From an uncultured Candidatus Peribacteria bacterium (GTDB lineage Bacteria > Patescibacteriota > Gracilibacteria > Absconditabacterales > Absconditicoccaceae), in assembly GCA_964418415.1 (NCBI GenBank), contig CAYQLB010000003.1, positions 12,618-76,617 of the forward strand: a stretch of DNA of 64,000 nt. The letters run 5' to 3'. Position numbers and translations under genes: made by a program. The first letter of the stretch is position 1, and the number at the start of each line of letters is the position of its first letter. This document shows positions 649 through 64,000 of the stretch, in pieces. The notes under the pieces were generated by a model, which did not search any database, was not told the DNA's origin, and was given only the letters and a program-made list of their open reading frames with translations.

Positions 649-692
649 TACATAATAAAAAATAGACTTTAGACTTTAAGACTTTATAGACT

Positions 693-1886: not shown

Positions 1887-2283
1887 CGATGTAATGTGTC
1901 CACTATCAGGAGGAATCCGTTCTCACCCCATCACGTCATTCCCGTGCCAAGTGTTTGAAGAGGGAATCTATAGCGATATAGCTTTTTAGCATGGATTCCG
2001 GCTGCAAAACTTATCGCCGGAATGACGTCCAATAGTTTTGATATGGATTCTCACAGAGTTTATCCCGCAAAATGGGGTTCGTATAATGTATCGTAAACCA
2101 TTACCATCCATTACGGGCGGAAGCCCTCATTACATGAGCATTAGCGAATAAATTATTATTTAAAAGTATTATAGTATATATGTCAAGTCTTCCTAGCCGT
2201 TTAGGAGGGCTTTTTTTGTAAAAAAAGGGCTTTTGGAATATAATCTTTATATAGTACGACCTTTAGATTTTAGATTATATAGC

Positions 2284-13301: not shown

Positions 13302-13383
13302 TATACTATAATTAAAAGATTAAAAGACAGTAATGTTTTGTAATGTATAGTAATGAATTCGCTACGCTCATGTAATGTATTGT

Positions 13384-13752
13384 TTAATTTTTTGTTAGGA
13401 TTTTTTTGGCTTTAGTTATGAAATTATTGAGTTTAACTGAAAGAATATCTAAATTATGTATAAATTGGGTATATTCATATTCGGATAATAGATTCCTATC
13501 GTGTAACGTTTCTATCCAATGTTTGCTTTCCTGTAAAGATCATCTTGCAGTATAATAGAATTTTATAGAATCTAAATAATGAAACCTTCCAAATCATTCA
13601 GCAATATTTGCTCAAATACTATCAATAGCCCTTACAAATTGACTTCACAGTATCTTTTTGAGATCAAAGTTAAGTCTCTTATAGATATGTCGTGCTTTTT
13701 TTCCTAATGTACGAGCGATACTATAAATTTCCAGATCAGCGATTCATTTCAT
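13384..13752 (-). CDS. four-helix-bundle protein (TIGR02436 / 23S rRNA IVS protein family, Avd-like)
   Basis: MKGIADLEIYSIARTL..SQFVRAIDSIGANIAEGFGRFHY..YTARGSLQESKHWIETL matches the family signature (SxxSNIAEG, ARGSxxE). Five in-frame TGA. Confidence 0.75.
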
Positions 13753-14172
13753 TCTACAATTCATTACACGAAGTAAATTACAATTCATTACATCCGCGTC
13801 AGCGGATACATTACATATCCAATTTCGATGTCAGTATAATGTTTTCCTTGACAGTGTCAAATCATTTTTGACAAAATCAATCATATTTTTGACAAGCATA
13901 GAGAATGTAGTTCTCCATATAACAAAAATCTCTTGATTTTCTAAAATAATTCATTAAAATTGATTTTGTTGATGAGAAAGAACTCAAAAAAACGATTTGC
14001 TTGTCATGTACGATTGATGTCGTAATCGGTGAATCGATAGAGGAATTTGCTCGTAATGCATTGTAATGATTCCTTCGGAATGTAATGATTAGTAATGTTC
14101 ATTACGCCGTAGGCACATTACGCTGCAAGCACATTACCGTAAATTAGTTTTATACTATTATAATAAAATATC

Positions 14173-29328: not shown

Positions 29329-29365
29329 TAATTAGATCTTAGAACTTAGTTCTTAGACTTTAGAT

Positions 29366-32049: not shown

Positions 32050-32104
32050 ACTAATGAATGAATAATTAAAAATGAAAAATGAAAAACGATGGTATCATTT
32101 TTAA

Positions 32105-32464
32105 CTAATATCCATCTTTCTTTTTAGATGTTTTTATACTTGCTACAAGTATTTTCAATAATTCTTCTCATAAATGATATAATGATATGTATTCGTTTTT
32201 GTTGATATATTCTGTTTCTAAAAGAATATCTAATCGATATAAGGTTTCATTAGCTTCTTTGAGTGCAATACTCATTTTATTTATAAAGTCAGCTCTGGAT
32301 TGTCCAAATTCAGCTTCACGAACTAAAGCTCAAATACTTGTTCATGATCTTATCAATTGTTTGCTTAGAATAAATTCTTGTTTTTTCTGAGAAAGATGCT
32401 GATAAAGTCTTACGATTTTAATGCTGAATTTATAACTCTTTGTTTTAAGAATATTCTCAGTCAT
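32105..32464 (-). CDS. four-helix-bundle protein (TIGR02436 / Avd-like), second copy
   Basis: SKQLIRSGTSIGALVREAEFGQSRADFINKMSIALKEANETLY[CGA]LDIL matches the family signature, ending in the ETxYWLxLL box. Confidence 0.8.
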
Positions 32465-32525
32465 ATAATTAATAAATAGTAAATTCCTACATTTTTCATT
32501 ATTCGTTATTCGTTTTTCATTATAT

Positions 32526-42732: not shown

Positions 42733-43848
42733 TTATACAATACTTTGAGCCATCCGATCGATTTTGAATCCTTTTTTTGCAAGGTTCAATTTGGTGAAAA
42801 CGATATCCATAAATTGTCTGACATTCGGTCATTTCAAAATAATATTGTATCTATATTTTCCAAACATTTTATAAATCAACGGAGGAGTGGAGTAAATTTC
42901 TATATCTTTCAACTGATATTTTTCTTTCAAATAGAGAAGATCTTTATGTAAGGTATCGACCTTCGTATACAAACTTTCTTCAATCTCATTCTTATATAAA
43001 ATTACACATAATTCCCCAAAGGGCGGATATCCATTCGTTTTTCTGAAGATATTATCTTCTTCGTAAAATTTTTCTTTACTCATTCTGCACGCATTACGAA
43101 TACTATAGTGATCGGGGTTAAACGATTGTACAATAAAACTTCCCGTTTGGTGTTTTATAAATGTTTCATACAGAAAATAGAAATTTCTTTCTGCTGATGT
43201 GTAATCGGGAATATTTAATCACAAATCTGCATTCAAAAAAATAACAAGGTCGAAATCATATCATTGTATAGGTGTGGCGAGTAATGATGTTCAAATAATT
43301 ATAGGGTTGCTCTGTAAAGTCTTAAAGTCCAAGGTCTGTAAGGTCGAATCTTCTGACTTTATGGGCTTTTGACATGATAGACTTTCGACTAATCTTTTGA
43401 TTTTATTAGGAGAATTTACAGTTTCAGACTCGATAATCAGCGAGTCTTTTCCGTATTCATTTTTCAAAAATTCAGCGACCTTTTGTGTTCAAAGTCAAAA
43501 TTCTTTGATTTTTTTTCCATGACAAGCAGGGCAGTTCATTGGTACTGAATATTGCGTTTTACAAATATGACAGAGTCCGATAGTCTCTCAGGATGGTATT
43601 TTATGATAACTAATACTGACATCGCAGTTCTTGCATTTTGGGATATGTCCGCAGTCGTGGCAGATGATTCATCAGGAGTAGCCTTTCTTGTTGACAAGGA
43701 TTCAGATTTTTTTTCCTTGCTTGAGATATTTTTCTATTCATTGTAAGGCTAATTGGGAAAAGTGCGGAGTGAGCTCCTTGGTCATATTTACCAGGAAGAT
43801 GGACTTCTTGGTACCTTGTATGTCGTGATCAAAACGTTCGTAATTCAT
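42733..43848 (-). CDS. priA: PriA-like protein, C-terminal half only (Zn-finger insert, helicase C-lobe, CTD); no Walker A/DEAH lobe
   Basis: ICHDCGHIPKCKNCDVSISYH..CHICKTQYSVPMNCPACHG (Cys-rich region), GTQKVAEFL, IIIGTSLLATPIQGYDFDLVIFLNADLGLNIPDY, GYPPF, MFGKYRYNIILKG. Upstream there is an in-frame TAA at 43912-43914 and no room for the N-terminal ~400 aa. Confidence 0.7.
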
Positions 43849-43903
43849 ACATAATATGGTACGTATTGGAAAAGCGGAAAAAAGTCTAAGTCATAAGGTG
43901 AGA

Positions 43904-43933
43904 TTGACTTTTTATAGTAAATATATATAAGAA
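43904..43933 (+). promoter_or_regulatory. conserved promoter cassette TTGACTTTTTATAGTAAATATATATAAGA
   Basis: Lies ~25 nt upstream of ATG 43957 and is near-identical to the cassette at 42246. Confidence 0.5.
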
Positions 43934-43956
43934 TGGTATTTATTTTTCATATTTTC

Positions 43957-45444
43957 ATGGGAGAATCATTCAATAAAACATTTGAAAGACATATGAAAAA
44001 ATTAGAAAAAAAAGCTCAAGCATATTGTCTCGAATGACCATACGCTCATTTTATCGTAACGCCGGAATGTATCAAAACATACAAGAAAGAATTGATGAAT
44101 ATTTTTCAGATGCCAAAGCATACTATCCAAGGACTACAATCCGAAAACTTTTATCATATCATAGCTGATACCGATGACTATCCAATCATAGATAGACCGT
44201 ATTCCAACATTGTGAATCAAATTATCAAAGGAGAAGATAAAGATAATCCCTATTCGGTACTTACAGAAGTTGCTCCATTCTATAAAAAACTGGCGGGATT
44301 GCTCCAATATGGTGTAGATATTCAACCGATAGATAAGCATACCATCTATGTTCATCATCATAATCGTTTAGTACATAGTTTCGATACAGCGTGCAATATC
44401 GAACTCATTATGAGAAATAATGGATTCTCTGAAGAAGATATTAAAAAAGCAGTAATTGCTTGATGTTTGCATGATGTTGCTACACCATCTTTCGGTGATT
44501 TGACGATGAAAGCTTTTCCTCAATTAAAAGAAGAACAATGATTTTCCGTATATATGGCTCATTATCCAGAAATATCTGAGTATATAGAAAAACATTTTAC
44601 TGTTTCATTAGAAGATCTACAATCTTGGATCAAAAATGAAGGCATAGTAGGCAAAATTATTGATATAGCGGATAGATTAGCATACACCGCAAGGGATGTA
44701 TCTGCTATCGGCAATGGTATGTTTCTTGGAGATGATGATTCAAAATTGATGTATGGGAAAGCTGCACAAAAAATCATCAAAAAAGATCCTACGGTATTCG
44801 ATATTATTATGGAGATTACTGTCAAAGATGGTCAGATAGTATTCGAAAATCCAGAAAGATTGGAAAATGTCATGACCGTAAGAGCTAATATGCATAATTT
44901 TATTTATCTCAATCCATATTTACGAACGAGAGAGGAATATTTCGGTTTGATGCTTCAATATCTCGTAGAAGAAGAATATTTGACCTTGGAACAATTACAA
45001 AAATGAGCGACCGATCAATGATTACCTATCAACGAATTCGTTATCGAAGCATATTGTAATAAAGGTATTCTCGATTACAATCCTGTGACGACATATGAAT
45101 TTTTTGATACGCATATGTATGATACTAAAGAAGAGGCGATATCGGATATAGAGACACTTAAACAACAATTTGGTCCTCATGTTCCTGTACATTATCTCAA
45201 GACACCACCATTCAAACCGGGAACACATTATCTCACGAGACATGAAGGACAGGTGAAGCCGTTAGCAGAGGTTATGGATTCCAAAGCATTACAAGAACTA
45301 CAAAAACTTTCTAAAGCGACTGATAAATATCTGGTACTCTATCCCAAAAAAGAGTTTCACGAAAGATATAAGAAATATCCAAAATTATATGCATTCTTGT
45401 GTAGAAAAGCAGATGAAGCGTATCAGGATTTATTAAAAATATAA
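43957..45444 (+). CDS. HD-domain phosphohydrolase, dNTP triphosphohydrolase (Dgt/SAMHD1)-like
   Basis: HHHNRLVHSFDTA.., AGCLHDVATPSFGD (HD motif; the G before C is TGA), IADRLAYTARDVS. Track ORFs 44092, 44554 and 45085 share one frame. Confidence 0.7.
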
Positions 45445-45806
45445 TGATGGAACAGCAGAGTATTAGAGAAATATCTATCAAAAAATTTAATGGCAGAATC
45501 CCTATTACGAGTGATCTTTTTGAGGTATTAAAAAACGAAGATGTGGTGTTTCTATATCACAGAAAAAACGAAGTGCATATTATGAATAAAATAAGATATG
45601 TCGAACTTTTGCAAGATACTAAGAAAAAAAGCTGACATCCAGATGGATGGTTCGATTGGACAACAGAAGGTAGAGATTATATGCGCAAATTATGTGCTTG
45701 CGCTTGTTCGATAGCGGTCAACAAAAGGTATATGGCTCTGGAATGAGGCGATAGATTGAAAAAAAAATTACTCTGACAAGAACTGAAGATAAAGATATTT
45801 TCCTAA
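45444..45806 (+). CDS. small hypothetical protein, start overlaps the upstream stop (TAATG)
   Basis: 63 aa up to TGA 45633. Under TGA=Gly it runs through two hairpins to TAA 45804 and abuts the dus stop. Confidence 0.4.
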
Positions 45807-46817
45807 TTACGTAAAAAACTCCTGAATCGCTTTGACGAGCGGTGTGTATTCTATGATACTGCTCAATTTCTGCTTCAGATCCTTGGATCATGGGATTCAT
45901 TTGAGATATTGAAATAAGTGTTTTCTGAATTCTACGACGACCATCTGCGGTACATTTTTTTTTGACATTCTCGGCGTATTCGGCATTTCCAATATACCAT
46001 TAAATATTTTTTTTTGTTTTTGAAAAAACTGTTCATAAGCGACAGTATAGTTTAGATGTTTCAGTATCGTTTCTTTGATTTCTTCTCTATTTGGTATATG
46101 TGGGGTAAAGATTCGTGGGTTTCCGATAGCAGCTTGTCCGATCATGATTCCGTCAAGATTTCACTTTACTGTTTCGATATCTTCGTACTGCTTAATTCCC
46201 CCATTTCCGATAATGATACATTTTTTGTTCGCTTGTTTTTTTAATTCGTAAATGAATTTCCAATCCACATCGCCTGAATAGATTTGTTTGGTTGATCTGC
46301 CGTGCACGGAGATCATATCCACATAATTGCTCGCTTCGATAAGGAATTTCATTTGTTCGTTTCTGTCTTTTTCATGAAGTCCTATTCTTGTCTTGATGCT
46401 AAATGGCATTTTCACTGCTTTGTGTAATACTTTCAATATTTCCAAAGATTTTTTTCTGTCCTTCATCAACGCGCTTCCTCATCAGGTGTTCATCACATTC
46501 CTCGCCGGACAACCCATATTCAATTCGATATACGAAAAGACTTTCTTATACTTTTTTTCTATATCCTTGAAGCATTTGGTCAGCATCTTTTCATCCGATC
46601 AGAAAATCTGCATCGTTACATTCTTTTGATCTTTGTCCGTCAAAAGGTGTTTCGCGACGCCGATGGGATTGATGACGTAACCGTCTGCATTCATAAATTC
46701 GGTCCGAAGTCATAATTCATATATGTTCTTTTCTCAATATTTGTCAAAAACTTCTTTCACGATCTGGCGGAAAGCACAATCCGTATATCCATCCATAGGA
46801 GCGAGACCCAATAACAT
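45807..46817 (-). CDS. dus: tRNA-dihydrouridine synthase
   Basis: LAPMDGYTDCAFRQI, IELNMGCPA, SIKTRIG, ISVHGRS, IIGNGGI, DGIMIGQAAIGNP. Confidence 0.9.
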
Positions 46818-46838
46818 AATTAAGAATTAAGAATTAAG

Positions 46839-46869
46839 TTCCGGCTGCAAGACTTAACGCCGGAATGAC
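46839..46869 (+). repeat. 31-bp REP-like hairpin element (copy 2 of 3)
   Basis: ttccggctgcaagacttaacgccggaatgac. The same element occurs at 1996-2026 and 63643-63673. Confidence 0.85.
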
Positions 46870-46971
46870 GAAAATTAGAATGTAGGATTAAGAATTAATG
46901 TAATGAAAGTATAGAAAATTTCCAGCCGGAAAAAACATTGTTTTTGTGTTTATAAAGTGTATAGGTCTGAT

Positions 46972-47715
46972 ATGTCTAAATTACGTCGAAAGATTAACAA
47001 TTTTTTTTGGAAGCTGGAAGGACGATTAAGATCGTCACTGTTTTTTCTATTCATTTTTTCTCTATTTCTTTTATTTCAATATAAATGGCAGAATCCTGGA
47101 ATGACCCCACTCATGCCGATTAGATTTGTAGATCAAATCATAGATAAAAGGCAGATAGTACTCAAACACACCCGGGTGCCAATCGAACAGATTTCCAATA
47201 ATATGATTTACGGTGTCATTGCTTGAGAGGATCAGAGGTATCTTGAACATCGAGGGATAGATATGGAGGCACTACGAGCTGCTTTGAAAAAAAATATCAA
47301 ACATCAGTCATTGAGTATTGGTGGGAGTACTATCACCCAACAGACAGCGAAGAATCTCTTTCTCCGGCCAGATCGTTCACTCTTCAGAAAAGCCATAGAG
47401 TTCTATTTCGCTATTATGATGGAGCTTTTATGGAGTAAAGAAAGAATTATGGAAATCTATCTCAATATTATAGAATTCTGAGATTGAATATATGGAGTCG
47501 AACAAGCTGCACAATATTACTTCGACAAACACGCAGCAGATCTTACACAGAGCCAAGCGAGTTTCCTTGTTGCTATTATGCCGAATCCGAGATATTACCA
47601 GCTCCACAAATATAATGGATGGATATCTTTCAGAAAAGGAGTCATTAATAGAGCTATCTCTAGTATGAAAAGGAATAAGGAAATGAAAATATTTGTAGAA
47701 GCAACAAAAGAATAA
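46972..47715 (+). CDS. mtgA: monofunctional biosynthetic peptidoglycan transglycosylase
   Basis: [28 protein letters not shown][CGG], [39 protein letters not shown] 46972 (a GTG at 46957 is also possible), TAA 47713. Confidence 0.9.
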
Positions 47716-47775
47716 GTTGATAACGGATTCAGTATTCCTATAGTTTTTGTATTTTATTTTTTGTAAATTTCGTAT

Positions 47776-48396
47776 ATGTTCGAATTTTTGCATCCGCTTA
47801 TAGACCGATATATGGTTCATGTTAACTATCGAAGCATAGCTGCATTAATGACGATAGAAAGTTCCTTTATACCTTTTCCTTCAGAAGTGATAGTTCCTCC
47901 GGCATGATGGAAAGTCGCTCAAGGATTGCTCAATGGATGGTTAGTGATGCTATCTGCAACCATAGGAGCATTATTGGGGGCTTTGGTTAACTATTATTTG
48001 GCTCTACGATTGGGAAGAAAAATTATCTACAGACTTGCAAACACGCGTCGAGCACATATGATTTTTATTACCAATGAATCTATAGAAAAATCTGAAACAT
48101 ATTTTCGTAAACATGGTAAAATCTCCACTTTTATTGGACGTTTGATTCCAGCTATTCGCCAATTGATCTCTATTCCAGCAGGATTAGCGAAGATGAATAT
48201 GAAACAATTTATTCTCTATACTTGTTTGTGAGCATGAGTATGGAATCTCGTACTTTTTGTAGCTGGATACTTGCTTGGGCAACATCGAGATAAGGTAATC
48301 GAATATAATCATATTTTCAAAATCATTATATACGCAATTATAGCAGCTGTGATTGTGTATTTCATCCTTCGTTACGTTTTTCGCAGAAGGAAATAA
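47776..48396 (+). CDS. dedA: DedA family membrane protein
   Basis: IAALMTIESSFIPFPSEVIVPPAG, YFRKHGKISTFIGRLIPAIRQLISIPAG, LLGQH[CGA]DKV. Confidence 0.85.
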
Positions 48397-48434
48397 CTAT
48401 ATATATCATGCTGTTTTATCTTTAAGAGAATGTT

Positions 48435-49172
48435 ATGGACAAGAAAGATTCCTTGAAGAAATTATATGAGAAGAAATATTTCGATACGACCCCTCATGCG
48501 AGAAATAGTAGGGTGGCACCACAAACACCAGGGACAAAAGTTCTGGAGATTTTTGGTTTTAAAAAAGAATGAAACATCTATCCGGAATTCGAGAACAAGA
48601 ATGTGACGGATATCTGATGAGGTTTGAGTAATTTTGCTTTCGAGCTAGCGCCGAGCGTCAAGAAGATTATTGTGGTGGATCCTACCTATCAGTATGATCT
48701 CAAGCAATGTATGGAAGATCAACACCAGAAAGCAGAGAGAAGATTAGCAAAAACAGCGGAATTACAGACAACTTGCGAAAAAGATCTTACCGAGATATTG
48801 AGTCTCGAAAAAGAAGTAGCTGAATGAATAAAGAGATGGAAAAATAATCTTCTCAATCCAGATGCCAAAATAGAACTCAATGATTCGTTTGCCCAGAATA
48901 TAGTTGGTATACCTGACAACAGCCAGGATGCGGTATTCTTTAATTTTGTCTTACATACGCTTAATGATGATGGTCCTTTGGAAGAGGATGTGCTAGTTGC
49001 AGTGAAGAATGCATATCGCATCACAAAACTAGGAGGGAAGATTTATGGTATTCACGATTCCATTTCCAAAGAAGATGAAATTATCAATGCATTGAGCAAG
49101 ACGGACTATAAACGAGATGCATGGCACAAGGATAATAAGAAATACACAGTTTTTATTATAGATAAAGAATAA
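48435..49172 (+). CDS. class I SAM-dependent methyltransferase-like protein
   Basis: VTDIGGGLSNFAFELA (motif I), IIVVDP, AVFFNFVLHTL, KLGGKIYGI. Track ORFs 48624 and 48978 are in frame. Confidence 0.55.
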
Positions 49173-49175
49173 TCT

Positions 49176-49622
49176 ATGAATATCGTTATTCTCGAAAATA
49201 TCCGTTCCGCCTACAATGTGGGAAACATTATTCGTACTGCAGATGCACTTGGATGGCAGGTCCGATTGACGTGATATACACCATCTCCGGAAGATACACA
49301 GAAAGTTGTAAAGACATCATTGTGAGCTGAAAAGAATGTATGATTGAAACAATTTGATCATACGCCAGAGGCGATCAAATTTGCAAAGAAAGAGTGAATG
49401 ATTGTCATCGCTGCAGAAATCACTCAAAATTCAATTTCTTTGGATACTTTCAAAAAAACGACTTCTAATATCGCTATCATATTTGGTAACGAAGTCGATG
49501 GGGTACTCGATTCTACCTTAAAACTCGTTGATCATATAGTTCATATTCCGATGCAATGAGTGAAAGAATCACTCAATGTTGGCCAAACATCAGCTATTTT
49601 TATGCGAGAATTAAATAACTAA
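49176..49622 (+). CDS. SpoU/TrmH-family RNA 2'-O-methyltransferase
   Basis: ENIRSAYNVGNIIRTADALG, IIFGNEVDGV, IPMQGVKESLNVGQTSAI. Confidence 0.8.
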
Positions 49623-49692
49623 AAGACAGATTGGATGAGAGAGATGTAAGAGAATCTTATTTGTCTTTATTATCTCATCTATCTTTTTAATG

Positions 49693-49722
49693 TTGCTATT
49701 TTATAGGAAATATATATAGTAT
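49693..49722 (+). promoter_or_regulatory. promoter cassette variant TTGCTATTTTATAGGAAATATATATAGTAT
   Basis: Related to the cassettes at 42246 and 43904. It lies ~40 nt upstream of ATG 49759. Confidence 0.4.
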
Positions 49723-49758
49723 AAAAACAAAAAAACAAAATCTCTAATTAAAAATTTT

Positions 49759-50625
49759 ATGGAAGAAAAAAATGTGAAGTATCCAATTATTTTGGAAAAA
49801 CCAACCACGAGAGTGGTTGTAGAGTTCTTACTGAAGCAGTTTGGCATAAGAATTTCAGGAAGCACAAAAGTGTTTCTCTGTCAAAAAGAAACCTGCGAAG
49901 TGGACTTAGATGTCCCTGTGACCAATTACGGTGCAAATGCCGCATCAGAGCATTTTATCTGTGTTTTTTCTTTGGATAAGCAAAAAGGTATCGTACCTTT
50001 GCTGCCATTCAAGGAGATGTCAGAGAAACTTGTCTCCGGAAGCTGGCCCGAAGCAGACCAGACCATCAGAGATGTAGTGAAAGAATGTACCATTAAACCG
50101 GACTTCATAATCACCTATGGGAGATTACAGATGCCGAGCGGTATCAGTGAAATGTGTTGGTGTATCCATGAGGTTTTGCAAGACAACGAAAGTGGTATTT
50201 TCGACAGTAAAGCAACGGTCCCGGAAGTAGTCCAATTGTTCACGGAATATTTGTGGACATTAGCCAATTTGTCGAAGCTATCGCCTGAGACCGCAAAGAA
50301 ATCTTGCGATGAAATTGTGGATGAAAATGCCGAACCCGCAGAAATTGCTGATGTATTCAGAGTTGAGGATGTAGTTCTCTATGTTCTGAATCAGGTACCG
50401 TTTGAAAAGCAAAAGAAATTGTGTAAATGCTTTTGCCAAAAAAAGCCGGAGTTCGAAGAATATGCAGCCAAAATCGATGATTGGGACTCGAAAACATTGA
50501 GAACGTTTATACTTCAGCATGATGTGCTCAATCATTTTGAAAGCTATCGCGAAATGATTGTTGAAGCAATGCAGCAAATGATGCCCGATGAGGGGTTAAT
50601 AGACCCCATTGGCGACGAAGTATAA
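49759..50625 (+). CDS. hypothetical cytoplasmic protein (288 aa), TGA/CGA/CGG-free, higher G+C
   Basis: Uninterrupted in both codes, with its own promoter and a strong terminator. I recognise no motif. Confidence 0.6.
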   Translation: MEEKNVKYPIILEKPTTRVVVEFLLKQFGIRISGSTKVFLCQKETCEVDLDVPVTNYGANAASEHFICVFSLDKQKGIVPLLPFKEMSEKLVSGSWPEADQTIRDVVKECTIKPDFIITYGRLQMPSGISEMCWCIHEVLQDNESGIFDSKATVPEVVQLFTEYLWTLANLSKLSPETAKKSCDEIVDENAEPAEIADVFRVEDVVLYVLNQVPFEKQKKLCKCFCQKKPEFEEYAAKIDDWDSKTLRTFILQHDVLNHFESYREMIVEAMQQMMPDEGLIDPIGDEV

Positions 50626-50643
50626 TCAGAAGTATTTTACAAA

Positions 50644-50672
50644 AGTCCCGGTTGTTTGCCGGGATTTTTTTT
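50644..50672 (+). terminator. rho-independent terminator
   Basis: tcccgg ttgtttg ccggga followed by T8. Confidence 0.8.
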
Positions 50673-50708
50673 ATCATAGAAAAAGAGAACTATTATGGCG
50701 TATAAGAT

Positions 50709-51290
50709 TTATTGTATTTCGAAGGTTGAAATCATCTCATCTATGGTCTGTGCAAATTCATCAAAAGTAGATTGTAGTGCTGTATATGTTATAATATAGA
50801 CTATCTTATCTTTGATGATATAGATTGTTTCTTGCTGAAGTTTTGTGTCACCTTGGGTTAATGTATAGATAATCTTTTTTGCTTCGATGTTATTGATGGT
50901 GATAGTTTCATTACTCACTTCGGTATAATCAGGAAATATCTTGATAATATTTTGCTGATGATGTAGTGTAGAATAATCATCCAATGAATAGGATCTTTCT
51001 AGTTCTTTTTTTGCGATACCGACATTTTCTTTGAGAGTATCACCTTCGCCAAGGGGAGAGAGAAACATAACCAAAGATCCATAGACATTTTCTTCAAATG
51101 TCCGGGTATCAGGATATTGGAGAGTGAATTTATGAGAAGTGGCTTCGTAAGTCTGCCATGTAATAGTATCTTGTACATCTGTAGTGGTTACTTCCGTTAG
51201 AGATTGATTTTTTGTACATCCAAACATCACGAGGAGTGACGTAAATAAGACTAATGAGATGATTTTTTTCATGTATTTCTGTTTAAACAA
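50709..51290 (-). CDS. lipoprotein (lipobox MFGC)
   Basis: MFKQKYMKKIISLVLFTSLLVMFGCTKNQ. 193 aa, TAA stop at 50709. Confidence 0.65.
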   Translation of the reverse strand: MFKQKYMKKIISLVLFTSLLVMFGCTKNQSLTEVTTTDVQDTITWQTYEATSHKFTLQYPDTRTFEENVYGSLVMFLSPLGEGDTLKENVGIAKKELERSYSLDDYSTLHHQQNIIKIFPDYTEVSNETITINNIEAKKIIYTLTQGDTKLQQETIYIIKDKIVYIITYTALQSTFDEFAQTIDEMISTFEIQ

Positions 51291-51308
51291 TAAAAAGTAA
51301 ACGAGGTA

Positions 51309-52106
51309 TTATAGAGATGATAATCAATCCGTTTCGTTTTTCAAGAAAACGCTCTTACTAGCTATGAGAAGAGAATTTTGTGATGTTTTCCATCATGTGA
51401 TTTTTTTTCACTTAGCTACATAACCGATATGCTGTAGAGTAAATCCACTGAGTGAAAGTAATTTTTGTAATTCAGATAGAGTAAATATATGGTAAAATCT
51501 CCATGCTATGGTTTTGCCGTTTTTTCGTGGGATCATAAGATCGTTTCGTTTGTACTTACCAAAAGAACTAATAAATCTTCGGCATGAACGTAAGAGATCT
51601 ATTTTGAATTTTTTTAGAAATCGTCGAGAAAAGGATCGATTGTTCATCATAAATTTTCCGTCATATTTCAATATTCTATAGATGTTTTTGATCAGAAAAA
51701 ATCTTTCTTTGATAGTTGGTAGATGTTGAAAACTCGCTATACCGACAACAAAATCAAAGGATTCTTGTTTCAATGTTTGTATATAATGAACGATGTCGTC
51801 GTGTACGAATTCTGCAGAAATATATTTCGGAATATTTTTCCCGCTTACCTGTTTCTTCGCGAACTTTAATAATTCCTTGGAAAGATCGACCCCGATGTAG
51901 TGGATATTCATTCCTTTGAGCTCTGTAAGGTGAGTAAGAAATCTACCGCTTCCGCAGCCAAATTCTAATATTTTGATTATTTTCTTATTGCAATTTTGTA
52001 GTTCGTCGAGAAAAATATCTGCATCAGCTCGATGTTTGTTTCTTGTATGATAGTACTTTTCAGCTTCTGTATCGTAGAAGCGAGTTAAGGATTTCTTGAT
52101 ATCCAT
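51309..52106 (-). CDS. class I SAM-dependent methyltransferase
   Basis: ILEFGCGSGRFL (motif I), IGVDLS, DFVVGIASFQHL. The standard-code stop TGA 51408 is read through for 33 codons to TAA 51309. Confidence 0.75.
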
Positions 52107-52159
52107 ACTAAAAAACTATAATTTTAAATTTCTAATTTTTAATTTCTAAAACCTAAAAG

Positions 52160-53161
52160 CTAAGAACTAAAGTCTAGTTGTTGTCAGACCATGCGTTCGG
52201 TTTCCTTAATCTCTTTACAAGATTTCTCTATCAGTTCGTCTAGAGTGAAAGTGATTTCTTCTCCCTCGATGAAAAGTTTTTTGAAATGCATGAGATAGAG
52301 AAAAATAAGCATCGTCATTCTAACATCATTCTTACAATATTTTTTGAATTCTTCCAGTGCATCGAGATCGTTTTCTTCCAGATATTTTTTGTAGAGAATT
52401 TCTCATTCTGCTCATGAACTCAGTGTTTTACTGATATTGACAAGCGCTTCAGCAATTTTATTTAATCATAGCCTTTTACCGGTCATAGCTCGGACAAAGA
52501 GAAAGAGGTCGATGCTTTTTTCATTGATTTTTTTGATATCATCTTCATTGCCTCAGATGTTATATACAGAGACGATATTGTCGAACGCTATGCTGTTGAA
52601 TCCTACAATATATCAGTCGAAGTCCAGCATCTTTTGTACAAATGTTCTAAGTTCTTCTTGATCAATATATTCATAGGTCATCCTGTTGCCATCAGTAGGG
52701 TGCATCGCATATGCTAAAAGGAATTTTGTTTCTTTGAGATTTTCGATGTTGGTATCTGTTTCTATATCGTAGACCATATATTTTTTTCCTCAGATGGTAG
52801 AATATTTTCCTGTATGGAATTCGTCGAGAAGAATCTGTTCGATGGATTTCTGTCCAGTAACTCTTTCTTTTTTTATGAAAAAGTTTTTGACCATAGTTTG
52901 GAACTCTCTTTTACCTTGATCGTCGAGAATGAGTTGTATTTTTTCTCTTTCGTCCATGAGGATATATTCGTTACCGGTATCTTGGAATCTGAAGGTAAAA
53001 TCTCACCTATTCATATAGTAAATTTCTTTCCCTTCCTTGAATATCTTTTTGAATAAATCACTTGCTATCATACAATGCTCCTTTTTGAGAATACCATAAA
53101 AGTTTACAAGAAAATTGTTCTGTACTGTCTTGAGTTCGTTGATAGTGAATCTTTTGTACAT
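52160..53161 (-). CDS. DEDD-type 3'-5' exonuclease (RNase H-like fold, YprB/PolB-exo-like)
   Basis: Exo I MVYDIETD, Exo II IVGFNSIAFD, Exo III YCKNDVRM. I checked the 5' part codon by codon. TAG stop at 52160. Confidence 0.65.
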
Positions 53162-53169
53162 ACTTTCAA

Positions 53170-53247
53170 AACAATTTTAAATTTTCAATTTCTAATTTCT
53201 AAACATAAGAATATGTTTGAAAATTGAAAATTAGAAATTAGAAATTA
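53170..53247. repeat. AT-rich imperfect inverted repeat built from aattttMaattt / agaaatt units
   Basis: caattttaaattttcaatttctaatttctaaacata agaa tatgtttgaaaattgaaaattagaaattagaaatt, between two minus-strand genes. Confidence 0.8.
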
Positions 53248-55416
53248 CTCCTTTTTGAGTCGTTCCTGGTAATTCTGCCATGCCGTGAGATCCGAATTTT
53301 TGATTGTTGCTAACGGATCTATGACAAAAGAATTTATAGTGTTTTGGTGTTCATCATCAAGCGGTAAATTGAGATTCTGTATGATATATGGAGTAGTGTT
53401 AGCCAGAATATCTTTGAAATATAAAGGTCAAAGAGTGTTTGTACTTAGCGTATAGTTTGCTATAAAATTGATAGTACCGATACTAAAATCAACGAAGATT
53501 TTACCCTCTTGATCAGCAATATCATTTGCTTTGATTCCGAGATATTGCTGTATTTTTTCAAAAACAACAATAGCATTGGTTGTTCCTTCATGGGTTTGAG
53601 TAGGTTTCTTATATTTAAGGATAGCTTTGATGATGTCTTCCAATGAAGAACTATTGGCAACAATTTCGCTGTAAGAAGTTTTGATTGAATTTTCCAATGC
53701 TGTATCAGAAGAAGTGATATTCTCAAGTCAACCATCTTTAAACGTAAAGGTGTAACGGATAGATTTTTGTTCTATGGTAGTACCTGTATTGGTGCAAGAA
53801 TGAATGATAAGTGTTTTTATTTCATTCAATGATGGACAAAGATCGCTGGATGCAGAGACAGGTGCGTTTTCTTGCTCATAGAAAACAAGATTTTTGGAAA
53901 TATAACTATAGAGCTCTCCTATAGAAAAGTCTTTGATGAGGAGAAGATTCTTGATGACATCATTGATTTCCGCTCTATTCTGGAGATTGATGCTTTTGAT
54001 CAAAAGCATATCATTCGTATAGGTCATGATGATGTGTGTTTTGATAGTTTCATTACTTTCTGGCGAAAAGAACTTAAGATAACCAATAATATCAATGGTA
54101 TCTATAGATATACTCTTTTTTTCGATAGTGAGATAAGATAGTGCTTTAAGTTTTTTATTGATTTTATCTTCCATACTCATGATTGCAGTAGTTCCTGTAC
54201 TATTGTTTTTTTGTGTAAGCAATGCTGTATTGTGTATCTCGCTATTTAGTCACGAAAAACCAAGCATAGGTTCTCATTCATTGATCGTTTTGATAGCAGT
54301 GAGTAATCATGCTATTTTACTACTTCCCAAATTTTGGGTAAAGATTGTGGTTTGGTAAGCTGCCTTTTCAAGTGATAGAGAAAGATATTTGTTATTATAT
54401 CGATAGATTTCATCTTTGTAGAATGGAGCAATACTATCTTTCTGGAGAATTTCTCTTACAAAATCTAAATATATGTTTATTTTGTAGGTATCAATTTTGT
54501 TGATGAGGAAATCCTGATAAAGTTGTTGTTGATAAGAAAGGAGTTTGTATTCATTGAGTAGGGGATCCTTATAGCTGAGTTTTTCAAATGATTGATTTTC
54601 TAATCCACGTTGAATCTCCATAAAAAGCGTTGTTCTTTTGAAAATATCAAAATATTGATCTCAGCAAAGGGTAAATAAGTTTTCTATGATAGTACTTTGA
54701 TCGTTGGAATAGAGAAGATATTTAGATAATCCATCACAGAATTGAGTTTTATTTGTTGTATTGTTTTTGATGGCACCGAAAACATTTTGAAGTCCAGTAT
54801 AGTCCTTGGAAATCATATAAACGAAAAAGCTGTCTAAGAAATTGTCTAGATAATAGTCGCAAGTTTTTTTGGAGAGTTTGCTTTCGAAAATACAGGAAAG
54901 ATTGAAACTCTCTATTATATCTTTTGTAAGTGGTAATTGTACACGAGTAAATGGCTTATTAATAGTGATTTTTTTGGTGAAAATGAATGTATTGATAAAA
55001 TTTTCTAGTTCTTCTATATCATATTCGCTTCCAGAAAAATAGGTTATATGCTTGATAGGAAGTGTACTATAGAAGTAAAAATATCTCGGTATGACAAATC
55101 ATTTATAACTAATGAGATTATTGACGGATTTTATAAATCATTCTTCGGTCTGAAAATCTCATTGAAGGATATGGATATCTATGTCGTTATTCTTGATATT
55201 TTGTTTCATGAATTTACTGAATTCTGCAATGAGTTTCGTCTTTTCAATTAATAAAGAATCATCTCCTTGAAATACGACTACGCGTGTTGATTTGGAGAGA
55301 ATACTTTGAAAAAGGAAAAATCCTACGATGATGGCAACGAAAAAAATAAGATAGTGAAAGAAAAATCTAGATATACCTTTGTAGGTGGTTATGATTTTTG
55401 TTTTTTGTTCTTCCAT
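53245..55416 (-). CDS. hypothetical membrane-anchored protein (723 aa)
   Basis: N-terminal anchor FFFHYLIFFVAIIVGFFLF. Track ORFs 53428, 53728, 54307 and 55159 share one frame. I checked the gap 54900-55160 codon by codon. No motif recognised. Confidence 0.65.
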
Positions 55417-55653
55417 ATATAAGAATCTTTGGATAAAGGGGTATTTATAGGAGTAAGTATACTGTTTTTGGCTTCATTTGTCAACGTTAATGCGAAGATA
55501 GAGAACGAATACCACTATGTCTTGAAGTACCTAAATATTCAGAACAATAAGTTTTTATGTGAAAATTGTCAATAATGCCCTTGCAATTAGTGCGTTTTTT
55601 TTTATACAGCGGGTGCGTTAATCGTATTTTTTATATAATAAAGCTATAGTACT

Positions 55654-55860
55654 ATGAAGAAATTACTTACTCTAGCAGCTCTTGTAGCTGGTGTAGCTCT
55701 TTTCGCTGGATGCATGAATAAACCAGTAGAAGAAGAAACTATCGTAGAAGAGACACCAGTAGTAGAAGAAGTTACAACTGAAGAAGTAACTCCTGCAGTA
55801 GAAGAAACTACTACAGAAACTACTACAGAAGAAGCAGCTCCAGAAGCTACAGCAGAATAA
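55654..55860 (+). CDS. small acidic lipoprotein (lipobox FAGC, E/T/V-rich tail)
   Basis: MKKLLTLAALVAGVALFAGCMNKP followed by EETxVEE low-complexity sequence. TAA stop, then a terminator. Confidence 0.6.
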   Translation: MKKLLTLAALVAGVALFAGCMNKPVEEETIVEETPVVEEVTTEEVTPAVEETTTETTTEEAAPEATAE

Positions 55861-55902
55861 TTCCCTACATAGATAGGTTGAAATCCTCTGTAAAACAACT
55901 AA

Positions 55903-55927
55903 AAAGAGTCGAAAGACTCTTTTTTTA
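55903..55927 (+). terminator. rho-independent terminator
   Basis: aagagtc gaaa gactctt followed by a T-run. Confidence 0.75.
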
Positions 55928-55941
55928 TATACATAATAAAC

Positions 55942-56625
55942 ATGCGTTTAACTGCTTACATCCAAAGTAACCATCAGATATCCCGTAGAGCTTTTGTTGA
56001 TATGATCAAACACGGCTATGTTTTGGTGAATACCAAAAAAGTAGAATCATATGCAGAGGAGGTCAAATCAGGTGATATTGTTGAAATTACCGCACCCAAT
56101 TTTAAACTCAAGGATACAGTAAAAGGAGAAAAAACAAGTTCGACTATCATCCTGTTTAATAAACCAAAAGGATATGTTACTTCCAAATCTGATCCACACA
56201 ATGAAACAATTTACGATATTTTACCACCGGAATTTAAAAAATATTATTATATCTGAAGACTGGACAAAGATTCTCATTGACTACTTCTTTTGACCGATGA
56301 TCCAGGATTGGTCAATTCTTATGAGCATCCCAAAAACGGTATCGAAAAAGAGTACGACATCGAGTTAGACAAAGACCTTGCTCCAAGAGATCGTATTCAG
56401 GCAATCCAGGGAGTGAAGGATGGAGAAGATATGTTGAAAGCACTCAAAATTATCCAGATAAAAAGATATCACTTTAGAGTGTTATTGAACGAAGGAAAAA
56501 AGCGCCACATTCGCAGATTATTTCAAGTGTTATGATATCATGTCTTGGATTTACAGAGGATACGTGAAGGACAATATAGATTAGATAATATCAGGATCGG
56601 AGAACGGAGAATTGTAGGAAAATAA
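55942..56625 (+). CDS. RsuA/RluB-family rRNA pseudouridine synthase (S4 domain + catalytic domain)
   Basis: YYIGRLDKDSHGLLLLTDD (catalytic Asp box; two of its Gly are TGA), EKEYDIE, EGKKRHIRRLF, IGE[CGG]RIV. Confidence 0.85.
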
Positions 56626-56630
56626 AAAAA

Positions 56631-56651
56631 ACTGCTGGAAAATCCAGCAGT
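56631..56651. terminator. hairpin terminator shared by convergent genes
   Basis: ctgctgga aaa tccagcag with an A8 run on the plus side, which is a T-run for the minus-strand gene. Confidence 0.7.
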
Positions 56652-56670
56652 AATAATGAAGATAATAATA

Positions 56671-57159
56671 TTATTTCCTTGTTTTCAGGTGTTCACTAAC
56701 AGCATGCATCAATGTATTTAACTCACTCGTTTCTGAGCAGAGTCTCTTGGGGATGCTGAGAGGACGAGTTCCTCCCATAAATGACCAAGTACCCTGATAT
56801 TCGAGTGTGCTTTGACCTTCGATATGGATACAGGATCCTTTGGGGATTCCTTTGTAGTCCTCAGTCGTCCAGACTTCTTTGGGTAAAGAAGCAGTAGAAT
56901 TATTATCTTGATGTTTTAGAACTTCTGCTTGGAATCTTTCATAAAATTCCGTCAGGATATTGGCCTCATTTTTTCCTTGTGCCCGATTGGAAATCGTAGT
57001 TATCCTATTGGATAGCGTATGGTACGATGGATCAGATTCCGCGAGCTTTTGCATCATTTTTTTGAGACTAAGGAGCTCTGATTTACTGATATAGGTCTGC
57101 TTCATGATCTTTGCGAGAAACGTAGCAGCATTATCAAAAAAAGAATTGTTCGTTTTCAT
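56671..57159 (-). CDS. hypothetical protein (162 aa), TGA-free, higher G+C
   Basis: Intact in both codes, TAA stop, own terminator. No motif recognised. Confidence 0.55.
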   Translation of the reverse strand: MKTNNSFFDNAATFLAKIMKQTYISKSELLSLKKMMQKLAESDPSYHTLSNRITTISNRAQGKNEANILTEFYERFQAEVLKHQDNNSTASLPKEVWTTEDYKGIPKGSCIHIEGQSTLEYQGTWSFMGGTRPLSIPKRLCSETSELNTLMHAVSEHLKTRK

Positions 57160-57201
57160 ACTATTTTGTTTTTGGATGAGTATATGAGATTTTTATTTTG
57201 C

Positions 57202-59877
57202 TTATTTTAGTTCGTCTTTGATTTTGTCTAAAATTTGTAATGCTTGCAGAGGAGTGATATTGTTGAGATCGTAGGTGTCGAGCAGTGATTTCAATTTCTC
57301 GTATTTTATTCAATATTCGGGATTTGGTGAAAGGTCGAAGGTCGAAGGTAGAAGATTCTTATTTTTGTTGCCTTGTCCCTTGTCCCTTGTCCCTTTTTCC
57401 TGTTCAAGTTCATTTAAATGCCCTTTTGCTCTTTCTACTATTGTAGCAGGAATACCCGCTAATTTAGCGACATCGAGACCATAGCTTTTATTGGCTCATC
57501 ATTTCACTATTTTTTTCATGAAGATAACTTCTTTATCGGTTTCATAGACACTTACGGAATAGTTTTTCACACCCGGGTGTGTTTCTTCCAACTGAATCAA
57601 CTCATGATAATGAGTTGCTATCAATGTTTTCGCTTTGATAGTGATGACGAGATATTCTAAGATTGCTTTGGTCAATGCGAGACCATCATAGGTCGCTGTT
57701 CCACGACCTAATTCGTCGAAAATAATGAAACTATTTTTCGTCGCATTATTCAAAATATTTGCAACTTCAATCATTTCTGTCATGAAGGTAGATTGATTTT
57801 TTGCAATATTATCTCCGCTTCCTATACGCGCAAATAATGCATCCATCAGCGGAAGCTGACATTCCTTCGCCGGTACGAATAATCCACAATGCGCCATCAA
57901 GACGATCAATGCATTCTGTCTGAGATAGGTCGATTTACCTCACATATTCGGTCCTGTAATTATATGGAGAAATCAGTTGTCTGTAGTGGTTCATCATGTA
58001 TCATGTATCATATATCATGCATCAAGCTGTAAGTCATTTGGTATAAACTGCTGATCGCGTGGTAAAAATTCTTCGATAACCGGATGTCTTCCTTCGATGA
58101 TATGTAGTGTATCGTTTTTCACAAACAGTGGTTTGATATATTTCTTTTCCTGTGCTAATATCGCTTGCGAAACGAAAAGATCCAATTGTGAAATCTTCTC
58201 AGCAAATTCGTGCAATTGTTTCATATTATCGTGTATCTTTGTTTTTGCTTGCTCGAGGAATTCGTATTCCATCTTACTCAAAATATCTTTTGCTTCCAAT
58301 ATCTTTCATTCCAAATTCTCAAGATACGGAGAAGAATATCTCTGACCTCACTTCAGCGTATTCCTACGAACTATTTCAAACTTTCCATCTCATTCTCCAT
58401 TCTCAATTTTAAATTTTCAATTAATATTTTTTTCGAAATTTTCTATGTCTTTATTCGTTACTTCCAAAAAATATCCTTGATTTAGTACATACTTTACTTT
58501 GACGGTCGGTATGCCTGCGGCTTGTGCCAATTCTTGCTGGTATTGTAAAAGTAGTTCATCACTATGATAAGCAATTTTTCTGAGTTCATCTATTTTTTCA
58601 TGGTATCCATCACGGATATAGTCGATATCGTTTTTGTATTCTTCATCGTTTTTCAAAAGCTGTTCCAAATAATTATACAGATGCTGGAGATAATTATTAC
58701 TTACTTCAGTCAATCATAATATTTTCAATTCATCGAGCAAAAATGTATTTTCGAAGAAAATTCTCAGGGTTGATCTAAGTTTGATAAAGGTATTTGGTAA
58801 TAGTTTTTTGTATAATATCGTTGTTACGAGTTTTGGTATATCGCGTACATTACATAGAAAATGGTGAATGTTTTTGCTTTTTTCTTGGTCAGAAAAATAT
58901 TTCTCTATCATATCCAATCTTCGCTGTAACTGCTCAAGATTTTTGATAGGATTCGTAAGTGTATGGTGGAGAAGTCTAGAACCACCAGCTGTTTGTGTAG
59001 TATTCAAAATATGGAAGAGACTATATTTTTCACTTCATTCATAACTTGAAGATAATAATTCCAGATTTTTAATCGTGACTTCATCCAGGATGAGATACGT
59101 ATCCTGTGAATGAAAGGAGATTTTCGTAATATTGGTCAGTGAAGATTTTTGGGTATGGTTCAGATAGGAAAATAATAGGGCTATCGTTGCTAATCTACCG
59201 TTCTCGAGCGCTTTTCCATAGCTTGAAATCTGTTGAACTCCCGTTATTCATGAGATAAATTTTTCTGGATCTGGTGGAATATCCCATATCGAAATCAATG
59301 CTTTCATAGCTTGTTGTACGGGTACGGAGATACTTTCTTTTTCAGGAAAATCGATGTCAAAGACTAATTCAACAGGTTTAACCGCGATGATAAATTTCTG
59401 TAGTTCTTGGATATCTGAAAAGCTTTTGGTTCGGTATTCACCGACACTAAAATCTCATCGAGCAAGATGATAACTATTTCCGTTGGTATACGGGATAAAG
59501 GTCATTGCCATCGTATAAGTATACGATTTTTTTGCTTCTTGGATATAGGTTCATGGAGTGATGATACGTACGACTTCTCTTTCCACTATTTTTCCGGGGA
59601 TAGGTTCGCTCGTCTGTTCGGCGATAGCGACTTTATAGCCATTATTGATTAATTTCGTAATATATTTGTCGGCACTATGGTAGGGAATGCCAGCCATGGG
59701 GACGGAATTCTCTGAATTTTTATTCTTGCTCGTGAGGACAATATCGAGCACTTTACTGCAGATTTTTGCGTCTTCAAAGAAGGTTTCATAAAAATCTCCC
59801 ATACGAAAAAATAAGATACAATCTTCATGTTCTTTTTTGATATCAAGATACTGGATAATCGCTGGAGTAAATGCCAA
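57202..59877 (-). CDS. mutS: DNA mismatch repair protein MutS
   Basis: [49 protein letters not shown] (TGA 57940-57942 = Gly), [35 protein letters not shown]. Five track ORFs share one frame. I checked the tail codon by codon to TAA 57202. Confidence 0.95.
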
Positions 59878-59907
59878 AACTAAGAATCAAAATGACTAAA
59901 ATTCTGA

Positions 59908-60011
59908 CTCCCTTTGTAAAAGGGAGAAACCCGAAGGGGAGAAGGATTTAAGTCGTAGACACGAAATCCTCCATCCGCATCGGCGGATACCTCCTCCTTT
60001 TATAAAGGAGG
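59908..60011 (+). repeat. ~105-nt five-helix structured element, copy B
   Basis: Same architecture as copy A with different stem sequences: ctccctt/aagggag, ccc/ggg, gaaggattt/aaatcctcc, atccgc/gcggat and cctccttt/aaaggagg. Confidence 0.75.
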
Positions 60012-63623: not shown

Positions 63624-63804
63624 TGGAGAGATAGAAATTTAGTTACGGCTGCAATACTTAACGCCGGAATGAGAAACAGAAGAATAGAGAAATAAGAATG
63701 TTCGTTGCTTCGGTAGCGGATTTTTTTATTTGATTTTTTCTCTACTAAGCATAGTATTGCAAAAGACTTTACAGACTTTCGATTTTATAGATTTTACAGA
63801 CCTT

Positions 63805-64000
63805 ATGGACCGTTTGATTATCTATATAGATGAAGCAGGAAGATGACCGCTCGCATGACCAGTCTATGTATGACTCGTTGCTTTGAAAAAAAGAATAGTC
63901 CTCAAAGCATACAAAGATTCCAAAATTTGTAGTCCAAAATTGAGAGAAGAATTATATCACAAAGCAACAACCCACAAGCATATCTATTGGACGACAGCGA
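63805..64000 (+). CDS. rnhB: ribonuclease HII, N-terminal part (3' end outside window)
   Basis: MDRLIIYIDEAGRGPLAGPVYVG. Both Gly of GRG-PLAG-P at 63844 and 63859 are TGA. Confidence 0.85.

Follow-up and report, generated by a model that had tools for sequence, protein, structure and literature searches.

What are the short repeats that lie in frame inside priA and mutS of an uncultured SR1-type bacterium of the Absconditabacterales, and how are they related to the repeats found between its genes? Both genes belong to the 64,000-nucleotide stretch analysed here (the window), which is C3:12618-76617 of the source genome, G000, a 93%-complete bin of 1.04 Mb in 48 contigs with ~34% G+C. Reading TGA as glycine (code 25) is the only way in which the window reads as protein-coding, and plain code 25 was used for all translations. 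To our knowledge, Rickettsia is essentially the only group in which palindromic repeats are known to have colonised essential genes in frame; a sequence-only reading of the window had proposed that something similar occurred here, with intergenic repeat families also inserted in priA and mutS. The priA, mutS and intergenic sequences that it quoted are present at the positions given, and the neighbouring genes sufS, fusA and rnhB were correctly named. It is concluded here, with a probability of about 0.7, that the stretches in priA and mutS are members of a class of small elements, genus-wide in occurrence, that are gene-less derivatives of cassettes carrying a PF05635 gene, and that they have been reshaped by slippage. 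PF05635 is the '23S rRNA intervening-sequence protein' family, which is related to Avd.

An element of this class consists of two arms, more or less reverse-complementary to one another, with a short loop between them that is often rich in A. Each arm is a tandem array, degenerate in sequence, of units of 5-9 bases (7 being the commonest length), and the full element takes up 60-140 bases. Families differ by their unit, examples being AAAGTC/GACTTT, TCTGA/TCAGA, GGGACAA/CCTTSGAC and AATTGAA. In priA, bases 43312-43374 amount to 21 codons that are missing from most congeners, and 11 of 14 congeners lack the insert peptide CQKPIKSEDSTLQTLDFKTLQ (amino acids (aa) 159-179; 15 same-genus PriA proteins compared). 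At the same site the relative G011 has a homologous insert, a clear two-arm element of AAAGTC arrays, loop and GACTTT arrays; G018 has a different insert of 45 residues, of two-arm architecture with another unit, TCTGA...TCAGA; and G014 has 4 residues. An alignment with Klebsiella PriA (4NL4) puts the additional residues in an unaligned gap between chain residues 513 and 550. The proposal that this loop is peculiar to the lineage holds good. The sequence GACTTTAAGACTTTAYAGA is matched exactly by priA 43311-43329 (minus strand) and by the sufS leader (672-690), and with up to 3 mismatches allowed the window holds no other match; 0.06 were expected and none of 100 shuffles gave two. The claimed kinship of the priA insert with the repeats upstream of sufS and rnhB is borne out by this exact match for sufS and by partial profile matches for both.

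Could such matches arise by chance in A+T-rich sequence of low complexity? G+C is only ~34%, and a third-order Markov genome as large as G000 still has 43 non-local repeated 19-mers; in the real genome they number 2571. The 19-mer of the mutS insert, like GACTTTAAGACTTTAYAGA, exceeds its shuffled expectation, with 5 matches in the window against 0.57. Tandem Repeats Finder (TRF) reports 1034 short-period arrays in G000 and 343 in a Markov control, the excess being about six-fold at period 7 (208 against 34) and evident also at periods 14 (79 against 11) and 21 (20 against 1), and profile matches to the elements reach E values of 1e-9 to 1e-13. Shuffles, Markov control and profile search together reject chance similarity, the probability of which is close to nil; the nucleotide matches are significant despite the base composition.

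The elements are dispersed through unrelated genes. Copies of the G011 priA element, 74-81% identical over ~60-90% of its 102 bases, occur in G011, G032, G031, G004, G033 and G034, nearly all of them in frame in unrelated long open reading frames (ORFs), of which the relatives have at least 10 with an in-frame copy of the AAAGTC family. Their host genes include uvrA (recognised by the motif RFTDKMYC and confirmed), ileS (by flank similarity to the G000 IleRS) and probably mnmA (by motif), and the insert peptides are of the type ESVKSVKSKV..TGGLDGPEDL. A profile made from 13 copies from relatives and run on G000 with nhmmer recovered in-frame elements in priA (E 3.2e-10), uvrA (E 9e-13), uvrC (E 2e-9) and ileS (E 2e-7), together with one full intergenic copy and half copies, among which are those in the leaders of sufS and rnhB; uvrA, uvrC and ileS were identified in G000 by characteristic motifs in their translations, and uvrA also by full-length matches in 29 genomes. 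Abundance differs between genomes: TCTGA/TCAGA elements give 32 matches in G018, 26 in G009 and 3 in G000, several of them inside ORFs of 560-760 aa, while at the same threshold AAAGTC elements give 10 in G032, 8 in G011 and 1 in G000. In uvrA two hot spots are occupied by at least four two-arm families across 24 genomes, some species being left short, and the pattern of filling is discordant with the MutS tree. The central claim of the sequence-only reading, that the same families are found between genes and in frame within them and that the inserts are lineage-specific, is therefore sustained.

The chief rival supposes that nothing has moved: purely local simple-sequence evolution, by 7-base slippage and template switching in quasi-palindromes, would build and reshape the arrays in place wherever they are tolerated, and the families would mirror mutational and coding bias. 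The excess of heptamer repeats in other bacteria has been attributed to polymerase slippage (PMC4679880, PMC4692102), and the priA of G011 contains a 15-base tandem duplication. What this account leaves unexplained is the presence of collinear left arm-loop-right arm copies, at the 74-81% identity given above, in more than 12 unrelated genes, as well as the genome-specific abundance of families and the occupation of a single site by different families in disagreement with the MutS tree.

A further observation that local slippage does not account for is that the same arm families bound PF05635 genes. G000 has seven such genes, all flanked by short-unit arrays, each with its own unit, about four of them convincingly inverted; two lie in the window, their ORFs spanning 32105-32464 and 13384-13899. 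In a local alignment of the left flank with the reverse-complemented right flank, the seven scored 19-43, as against a median of 18 and a 99th percentile of 28 for 891 other G000 genes (Mann-Whitney p 3e-4). The window cassettes at 32057 and 13329 scored 38 (beyond the 99th percentile) and 43 (top 0.1% of controls), respectively, and four of the seven stand at about the 95th percentile or above. This alignment replaced a crude 6-mer flank test of poor discrimination (p 0.013). Five relatives carry 5-13 PF05635 genes each, and their 26 cassettes have a median flank score of 26, the control 95th percentile being 25, a value derived from G000 genes for which the flank was slightly longer.

At sufS the gene-bearing and gene-less states can be set side by side. 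In locus L230 of G031 an AAAGTC array, a PF05635 gene and a GACTTT array are followed by the start codon of a sufS that is 79% identical to that of G000, and at the orthologous place G000 keeps only the right arm (the GACTTT array at 664-692). When its two arms are joined, the G031 cassette is collinear in alignment with the elements that lie in frame in priA, uvrA, uvrC and ileS. The CTTAGA/TCTAAG units of the array after fusA also flank PF05635 genes in G018:C81 and G011:C2. Slippage as the sole cause is an unlikely account in view of the PF05635 cassette and of two-arm copies that are collinear although the genes holding them are unrelated. A model after the repetitive extragenic palindromes and their transposases (REP/RAYT) was rejected, as Y1 transposases are patchy in the genus (16 of 30 genomes), were not found in G000, and do not adjoin mutS there, where the neighbouring ORFs are a 162-aa ORF with no assignment and a pseudouridine synthase. 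A Y1 transposase-like gene does lie within 2.5 kb of mutS in three congeners (G007:C4:15599-15889, G008:C25:6070-6402 and G018:C4:16991-17254).

Three inserts are present in mutS, of which the sequence-only reading had seen one, and all three sites are indel hot spots among relatives. The flagged insert, site 1, lies in a loop of domain IV (the clamp domain), and two of its glycines are TGA codons. It falls within 17 residues that are extra relative to E. coli MutS and is the most length-variable position among 32 orthologues, in agreement with its description as an insertion between conserved MutS blocks; in two MutS proteins that are 94% identical it is the sole internal length difference. 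Other species have at this place, in frame, related heptamer arrays or a TCTGA/TCAGA two-arm element (loci L092, L093 and L099). The 19-mer at 58404-58422 is identical to intergenic 53172-53190 and has three more window matches at 3 mismatches; the intergenic 52116-52150 element is related to it at that distance, both relationships being as claimed. AATTGAA-type arrays occur at ~10 intergenic loci and in one other coding sequence.

The view of the flagged stretch as a member of a repeat family stands; the site is one-armed in G000 and also evolves by local slippage. In many species the site 1 arrays are rotations or point variants of one unit (AATTGAA, AATTCAG, CAGAATG) in differing copy number. 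Slippage alone may explain this one-armed site, for which reason it is kept as the main rival, and it clearly acts in addition to whatever produced the elements. Site 2, one of the two that had been missed, directly precedes the Walker A motif, has 13 residues more than E. coli MutS, is variable among congeners and reads three of its glycines from TGA codons. The C-terminal linker, variable in all congeners, holds a two-arm element of 25 encoded residues (TRF arrays at 57331-57354 and 57371-57395) that folds into 4-bp helices every 7 nt (z -1.7), and its GGGACAA unit recurs in other coding sequences and at one intergenic site. An AlphaFold model of MutS (28 sequences) has a predicted local distance difference test score (pLDDT) below 50 at 490-496, 621-632 and 829-852, the three insert sites, and is otherwise better modelled. 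For MutS this may fit the expectation that the inserts occupy structurally tolerant loops; for PriA the model has a mean pLDDT of 60, and its quality does not allow the loop to be positioned. In the linker the (GGGACAA)x3.6 run (57371-57395, minus strand) is perfect, and a slip of one unit would shift the frame and lose the C-terminal domain, which would make the run a possible mutator switch.

Alternatively, the inserts might be selected protein modules, that is, flexible SD-, KS- or GT-rich functional linkers for which DNA palindromy and intergenic look-alikes are incidental. They do persist in essential genes across species, and nearly all congeners have an insert at some of the sites, for instance in the C-terminal linker of mutS and at uvrA site B. 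This explanation is nevertheless very improbable, because at a given site neither peptide sequence nor length is conserved and families replace one another, many congeners do without the priA insert, and the same DNA lies untranslated between genes and around PF05635 genes; what is conserved is the DNA architecture of two complementary arms and not the peptide. Selection for an mRNA hairpin was likewise rejected. For 49 elements inside genes the folding energy of the sense strand ranges from -9 to -38 kcal/mol (mean -22.6), and the antisense folds are slightly more stable (mean -25.1; Wilcoxon p 0.007); as the elements fold about equally on both strands, palindromy is a feature of the DNA rather than selected mRNA structure. 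Many in-gene copies hold in-frame TGA (for example ..ACC TGA TGA CTT.., read T-G-G-L), so that read-through is possible only under code 25.

Genome-wide, the arrays of G000 are concentrated outside genes. Among those of period 7, 14 or 21, 162 of 307 lie in non-coding DNA, which makes up 11% of the genome, and 108 in coding sequence, and intergenic DNA has a ~12-fold higher density of this period-7 family. The canonical heptamer units number 92, a few of them being favoured, with the commonest accounting for 15 of the 208 period-7 arrays. Intergenic arrays form inverted pairs, with stop-rich units after a stop codon and their complements before the next start codon, and these pairs fold strongly (z -3.2 to -3.9). 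Heptamer arrays are widespread in the genus and present in some other families of the class. An Rfam search of the window found no known RNA family.

Several observations weigh against the derivation from PF05635 cassettes. All genomes compared are metagenome bins, and a metagenome scan for conspecific strains found none closer than ~80% identity. The copies are only ~70-80% identical and made of simple units, so some of the similarity could be convergent. The priA copy of G000 forms a weak, degraded hairpin (z -0.5, whereas that of G011 has z -3.1). Site 1 of mutS has a single arm, and the occurrence of the unit GAAAATT in its conserved flanks is consistent with slippage having produced it locally. 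As a class, the in-gene period-7 arrays of G000 have no excess of inverted partners over random coding segments, which also speaks for local slippage. A strict inverted-repeat scan of G000 gave 32 intergenic clusters and few inside genes: seven were classed so, three of which are runs of N, leaving at most four that are genuine. 'Empty' uvrA alleles retain a K-rich remnant and could be collapsed elements. No transposition event, target-site duplication or clean pair of empty and filled sites at the DNA level was shown, and no duplications were noticed at the uvrA or priA junctions in a search that was not systematic. The flank scores are weak for three of the seven cassettes in G000, and we know of no DNA-mobilising activity in PF05635. 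That the insert peptides are made is inferred only from their open frames.

With these points taken into account, the derivation from cassettes suggests the following course of events. [quoted passage not shown] Copies would spread by a copy-and-paste process, presumably driven by PF05635 or another factor. Most copies lie between genes and form long hairpins there; within genes a copy would survive only if it has no stop in the reading frame, if its length is divisible by three and if it sits in a loop or linker that tolerates it. It would then be translated as a hydrophilic, probably disordered peptide, the reading of TGA as glycine widening the set of readable units. After arrival copies would change by replication slippage and perhaps by template switching from arm to arm, and could decay to one arm, as may have happened in the leader of sufS and at site 1 of mutS. 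More speculatively, and doubtful as it stands, PF05635 proteins, the long-orphan '23S rRNA intervening-sequence protein' included, may be the specificity or mobility factor of transposase-less hairpin-array elements, each paralogue recognising its own array unit and driving gene-less copies into new sites, coding DNA included, with the result that bacteria reading TGA as glycine would undergo ongoing remodelling of the surface loops of essential proteins.

The features of the window are collected in Table 1.

Table 1. Repeat elements, cassettes and host genes in the window (positions are those of the window)
Feature	Coordinates	Strand	Details
Solo GACTTT-type array	664-692	+	Ends at sufS start codon; TRF, partial nhmmer match
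PF05635 cassette	13329-13815	-	GTAATG-type array 13329-13377; domain ~13426-13737, E 3.3e-23; CATTAC-type array ~13745-13815
TAG-phased heptamer array	29332-29365	+	TTAGATC TTAGAAC TTAGTTC TTAGACT; directly after fusA stop codon; TRF
PF05635 cassette	32057-32523	-	(AATGAAA)x4.3 32057-32086; gene 32105-32464, E 3.9e-24; (CATTATT)x4.9 32490-32523; Pfam, TRF
priA	42733-43848	-	371 aa under code 25; Cys-rich region, helicase lobe 2, C-terminal domain
priA in-frame two-arm element	43309-43392	-	aa 153-180, LVESLSCQKPIKSEDSTLQTLDFKTLQS; left arm of AAAGTC-type units, short loop, right arm GACYTT-type
One-armed array, period 14 (two 7-base units)	52119-52149	-	Upstream of methyltransferase gene; TRF; kin to 53162 element at 3 mismatches
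Gene-less two-arm intergenic hairpin, AATTGAA/AAATTAG type	53162-53244	-	Fold z -3.2; contains mutS 19-mer (53172-53190)
mutS	57202-59877	-	891 aa, complete, all five MutS domains
mutS C-terminal linker two-arm element	57331-57395	-	In gene sense (GGGACAA)x3.6 perfect, A-rich loop, (CTTCGAC)x3.4; aa 828-850
mutS site 2	57979-58023	-	ATCATGT x4.6 on plus strand (TRF 57993-58024); encodes DAGYMIHDTGGTTTD, aa 619-633
mutS site 1	58384-58428	-	Heptamer array AATTGAA AATTTAA AATTGAG AATGGAG ...; 15 residues, aa 484-498
GACTTT/GATTTT-type array, period 9	63764-63805	+	Ends at rnhB start codon; TRF; half-length nhmmer match C3:76381-76418

The priA gene is itself of unusual form. Its product matches only the C-terminal two-thirds of PriA models (TIGR00595 positions 165-492, with a PF18074 match) and is devoid of the 3'-DNA-binding domain, the winged helix and the Walker A lobe. 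A PriA of 350-395 aa starting with MNYERF is common to all 14 same-genus genomes and is thus a conserved form and not a fresh truncation. The N-terminal half was not found elsewhere in the 93%-complete bin; its best match, C16:5030-7168, was rejected as RecG-like by motifs. This RecG-like gene, which lies outside the window, has an in-frame (AATGATG)x4.9 array that encodes EKEMINDEGGMMNDGEP, and ~54 further coding sequences of G000 contain arrays of period 7, 14 or 21 (TRF score at least 38). At the C-terminus of PriA (window ~42745-42760; loci L002-L015) G000 and some congeners have R immediately ahead of MA(E/Q)SIV and others have W, as in KIDRMAQSIV and KVDWMAESIV; reassignment of CGA/CGG to Trp has reportedly been found in this clade, and the R/W alternation fits it.

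Other repeats were seen beside these. Relative to window 693-1886, the sufS of G031 (L230:1950-3167) has an 8-residue longer, G/K/D-rich segment, NKLREKGRGTSDKDSP, where G000 has LDGFTKLKGK; it is probably another repeat-derived loop. A 27-base hairpin motif, CGGCTGCAAnACTTAnCGCCGGAATGA, is conserved at window 1999-2025, 46842-46868 and 63646-63672 (three copies, none being expected by chance), with further copies in C11:12451-12570, and at 46818 and 63620 it is nested among heptamer arrays such as AATTAAG x3. This recalls Nostoc, where small dispersed repeats are nested in heptamer arrays. A second repeated structured element, richer in G+C (..ctcccatccgtaaatacggatacctccctc..), lies at ~531-660 upstream of sufS and at 59900-60011 upstream of mutS, and matches no Rfam family.

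The existence of a visible gene-bearing form gives a handle on two old puzzles, the spread of elements of the Rickettsia type and the role of the PF05635/rRNA intervening-sequence protein, and the reassignment of TGA to glycine relaxes the filter on selfish DNA surviving inside genes. In annotation, loops that are hypervariable and encoded by repeats are to be expected in conserved proteins of SR1 bacteria and should not be taken for misassemblies. In full-text literature searches no description was found of in-frame hairpin-array elements in CPR (candidate phyla radiation) or SR1 bacteria, nor of a link to PF05635 cassettes.

The closest parallel in behaviour is with Rickettsia palindromic elements (RPEs; Ogata et al. 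2000, 2002), described as families of small palindromic repeats of ~150 bases that lie between genes and in frame in housekeeping genes (PMC10969869). To judge from that account, both systems comprise several small palindromic families, intergenic and in frame in unrelated housekeeping genes, each of which adds a family-typical peptide and leaves the host protein unbroken. The RPE-type traits seen here are a recognisable consensus (13 aligned copies), hairpin formation and in-frame position in intact, unrelated genes, namely priA, uvrA, uvrC, ileS and mutS in G000 and uvrA, ileS, probable mnmA and others in relatives. In contrast to RPEs, which the same account presents as unique sequence of ~150 bases, the elements described here measure 60-140 bases and have arms that are tandem arrays of 5-9-base units; moreover, their sites are re-occupied by different families, there is a form bearing a PF05635 gene, and read-through often needs TGA to be glycine. 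They belong to another phylum, no sequence relation is claimed, and they are not classed as members of an RPE family.

With the 23S rRNA intervening sequences of Coxiella, Leptospira and others (PMC4990558) the cassettes share a PF05635 gene between inverted repeats that form a long stem, and tandem heptamers beside the ORF. The Coxiella sequence, inside an RNase III stem, is held to be selfish and has heptameric repeats of variable number beside its PF05635 ORF; such repeats vary in number between strains and the intervening sequences are regarded as horizontally acquired (PMC4990558). Whereas intervening sequences lie in helix 25 or 45 of the rRNA, the two window cassettes and that of L230 sit between protein-coding genes and not in 23S rRNA, and there are 5-13 cassettes per genome, each with its own unit; the gene-less derivatives inside coding sequences must be translated rather than excised by RNase III.

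The heptameric simple-sequence repeats known from other bacteria, the short tandemly repeated repetitive (STRR) sequences of cyanobacteria, TAACTGA of Beggiatoaceae and GGGAATC of Xanthomonas (PMC4679880, PMC4692102), resemble the arrays of G000 in their period of 7, in being strongly intergenic and often abutting start codons, in having stops in all three frames of one strand, with occasional stop-free copies in ORFs, and in changing length rapidly between relatives; inverted pairs have also been reported. They consist of one or a few units, as opposed to the 92 of G000, and differ from the two-arm composites, which are dispersed in many essential genes and linked to a specific gene family. 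As with MITEs and REP/RAYT, short non-coding inverted-repeat derivatives that form hairpin DNA greatly outnumber the gene-bearing form, but that form carries PF05635 only and no recognisable transposase. To a Rickettsia-like behaviour the analysis adds the unit-array anatomy of the arms, the turnover of families at hot spots and the link to PF05635 cassettes.

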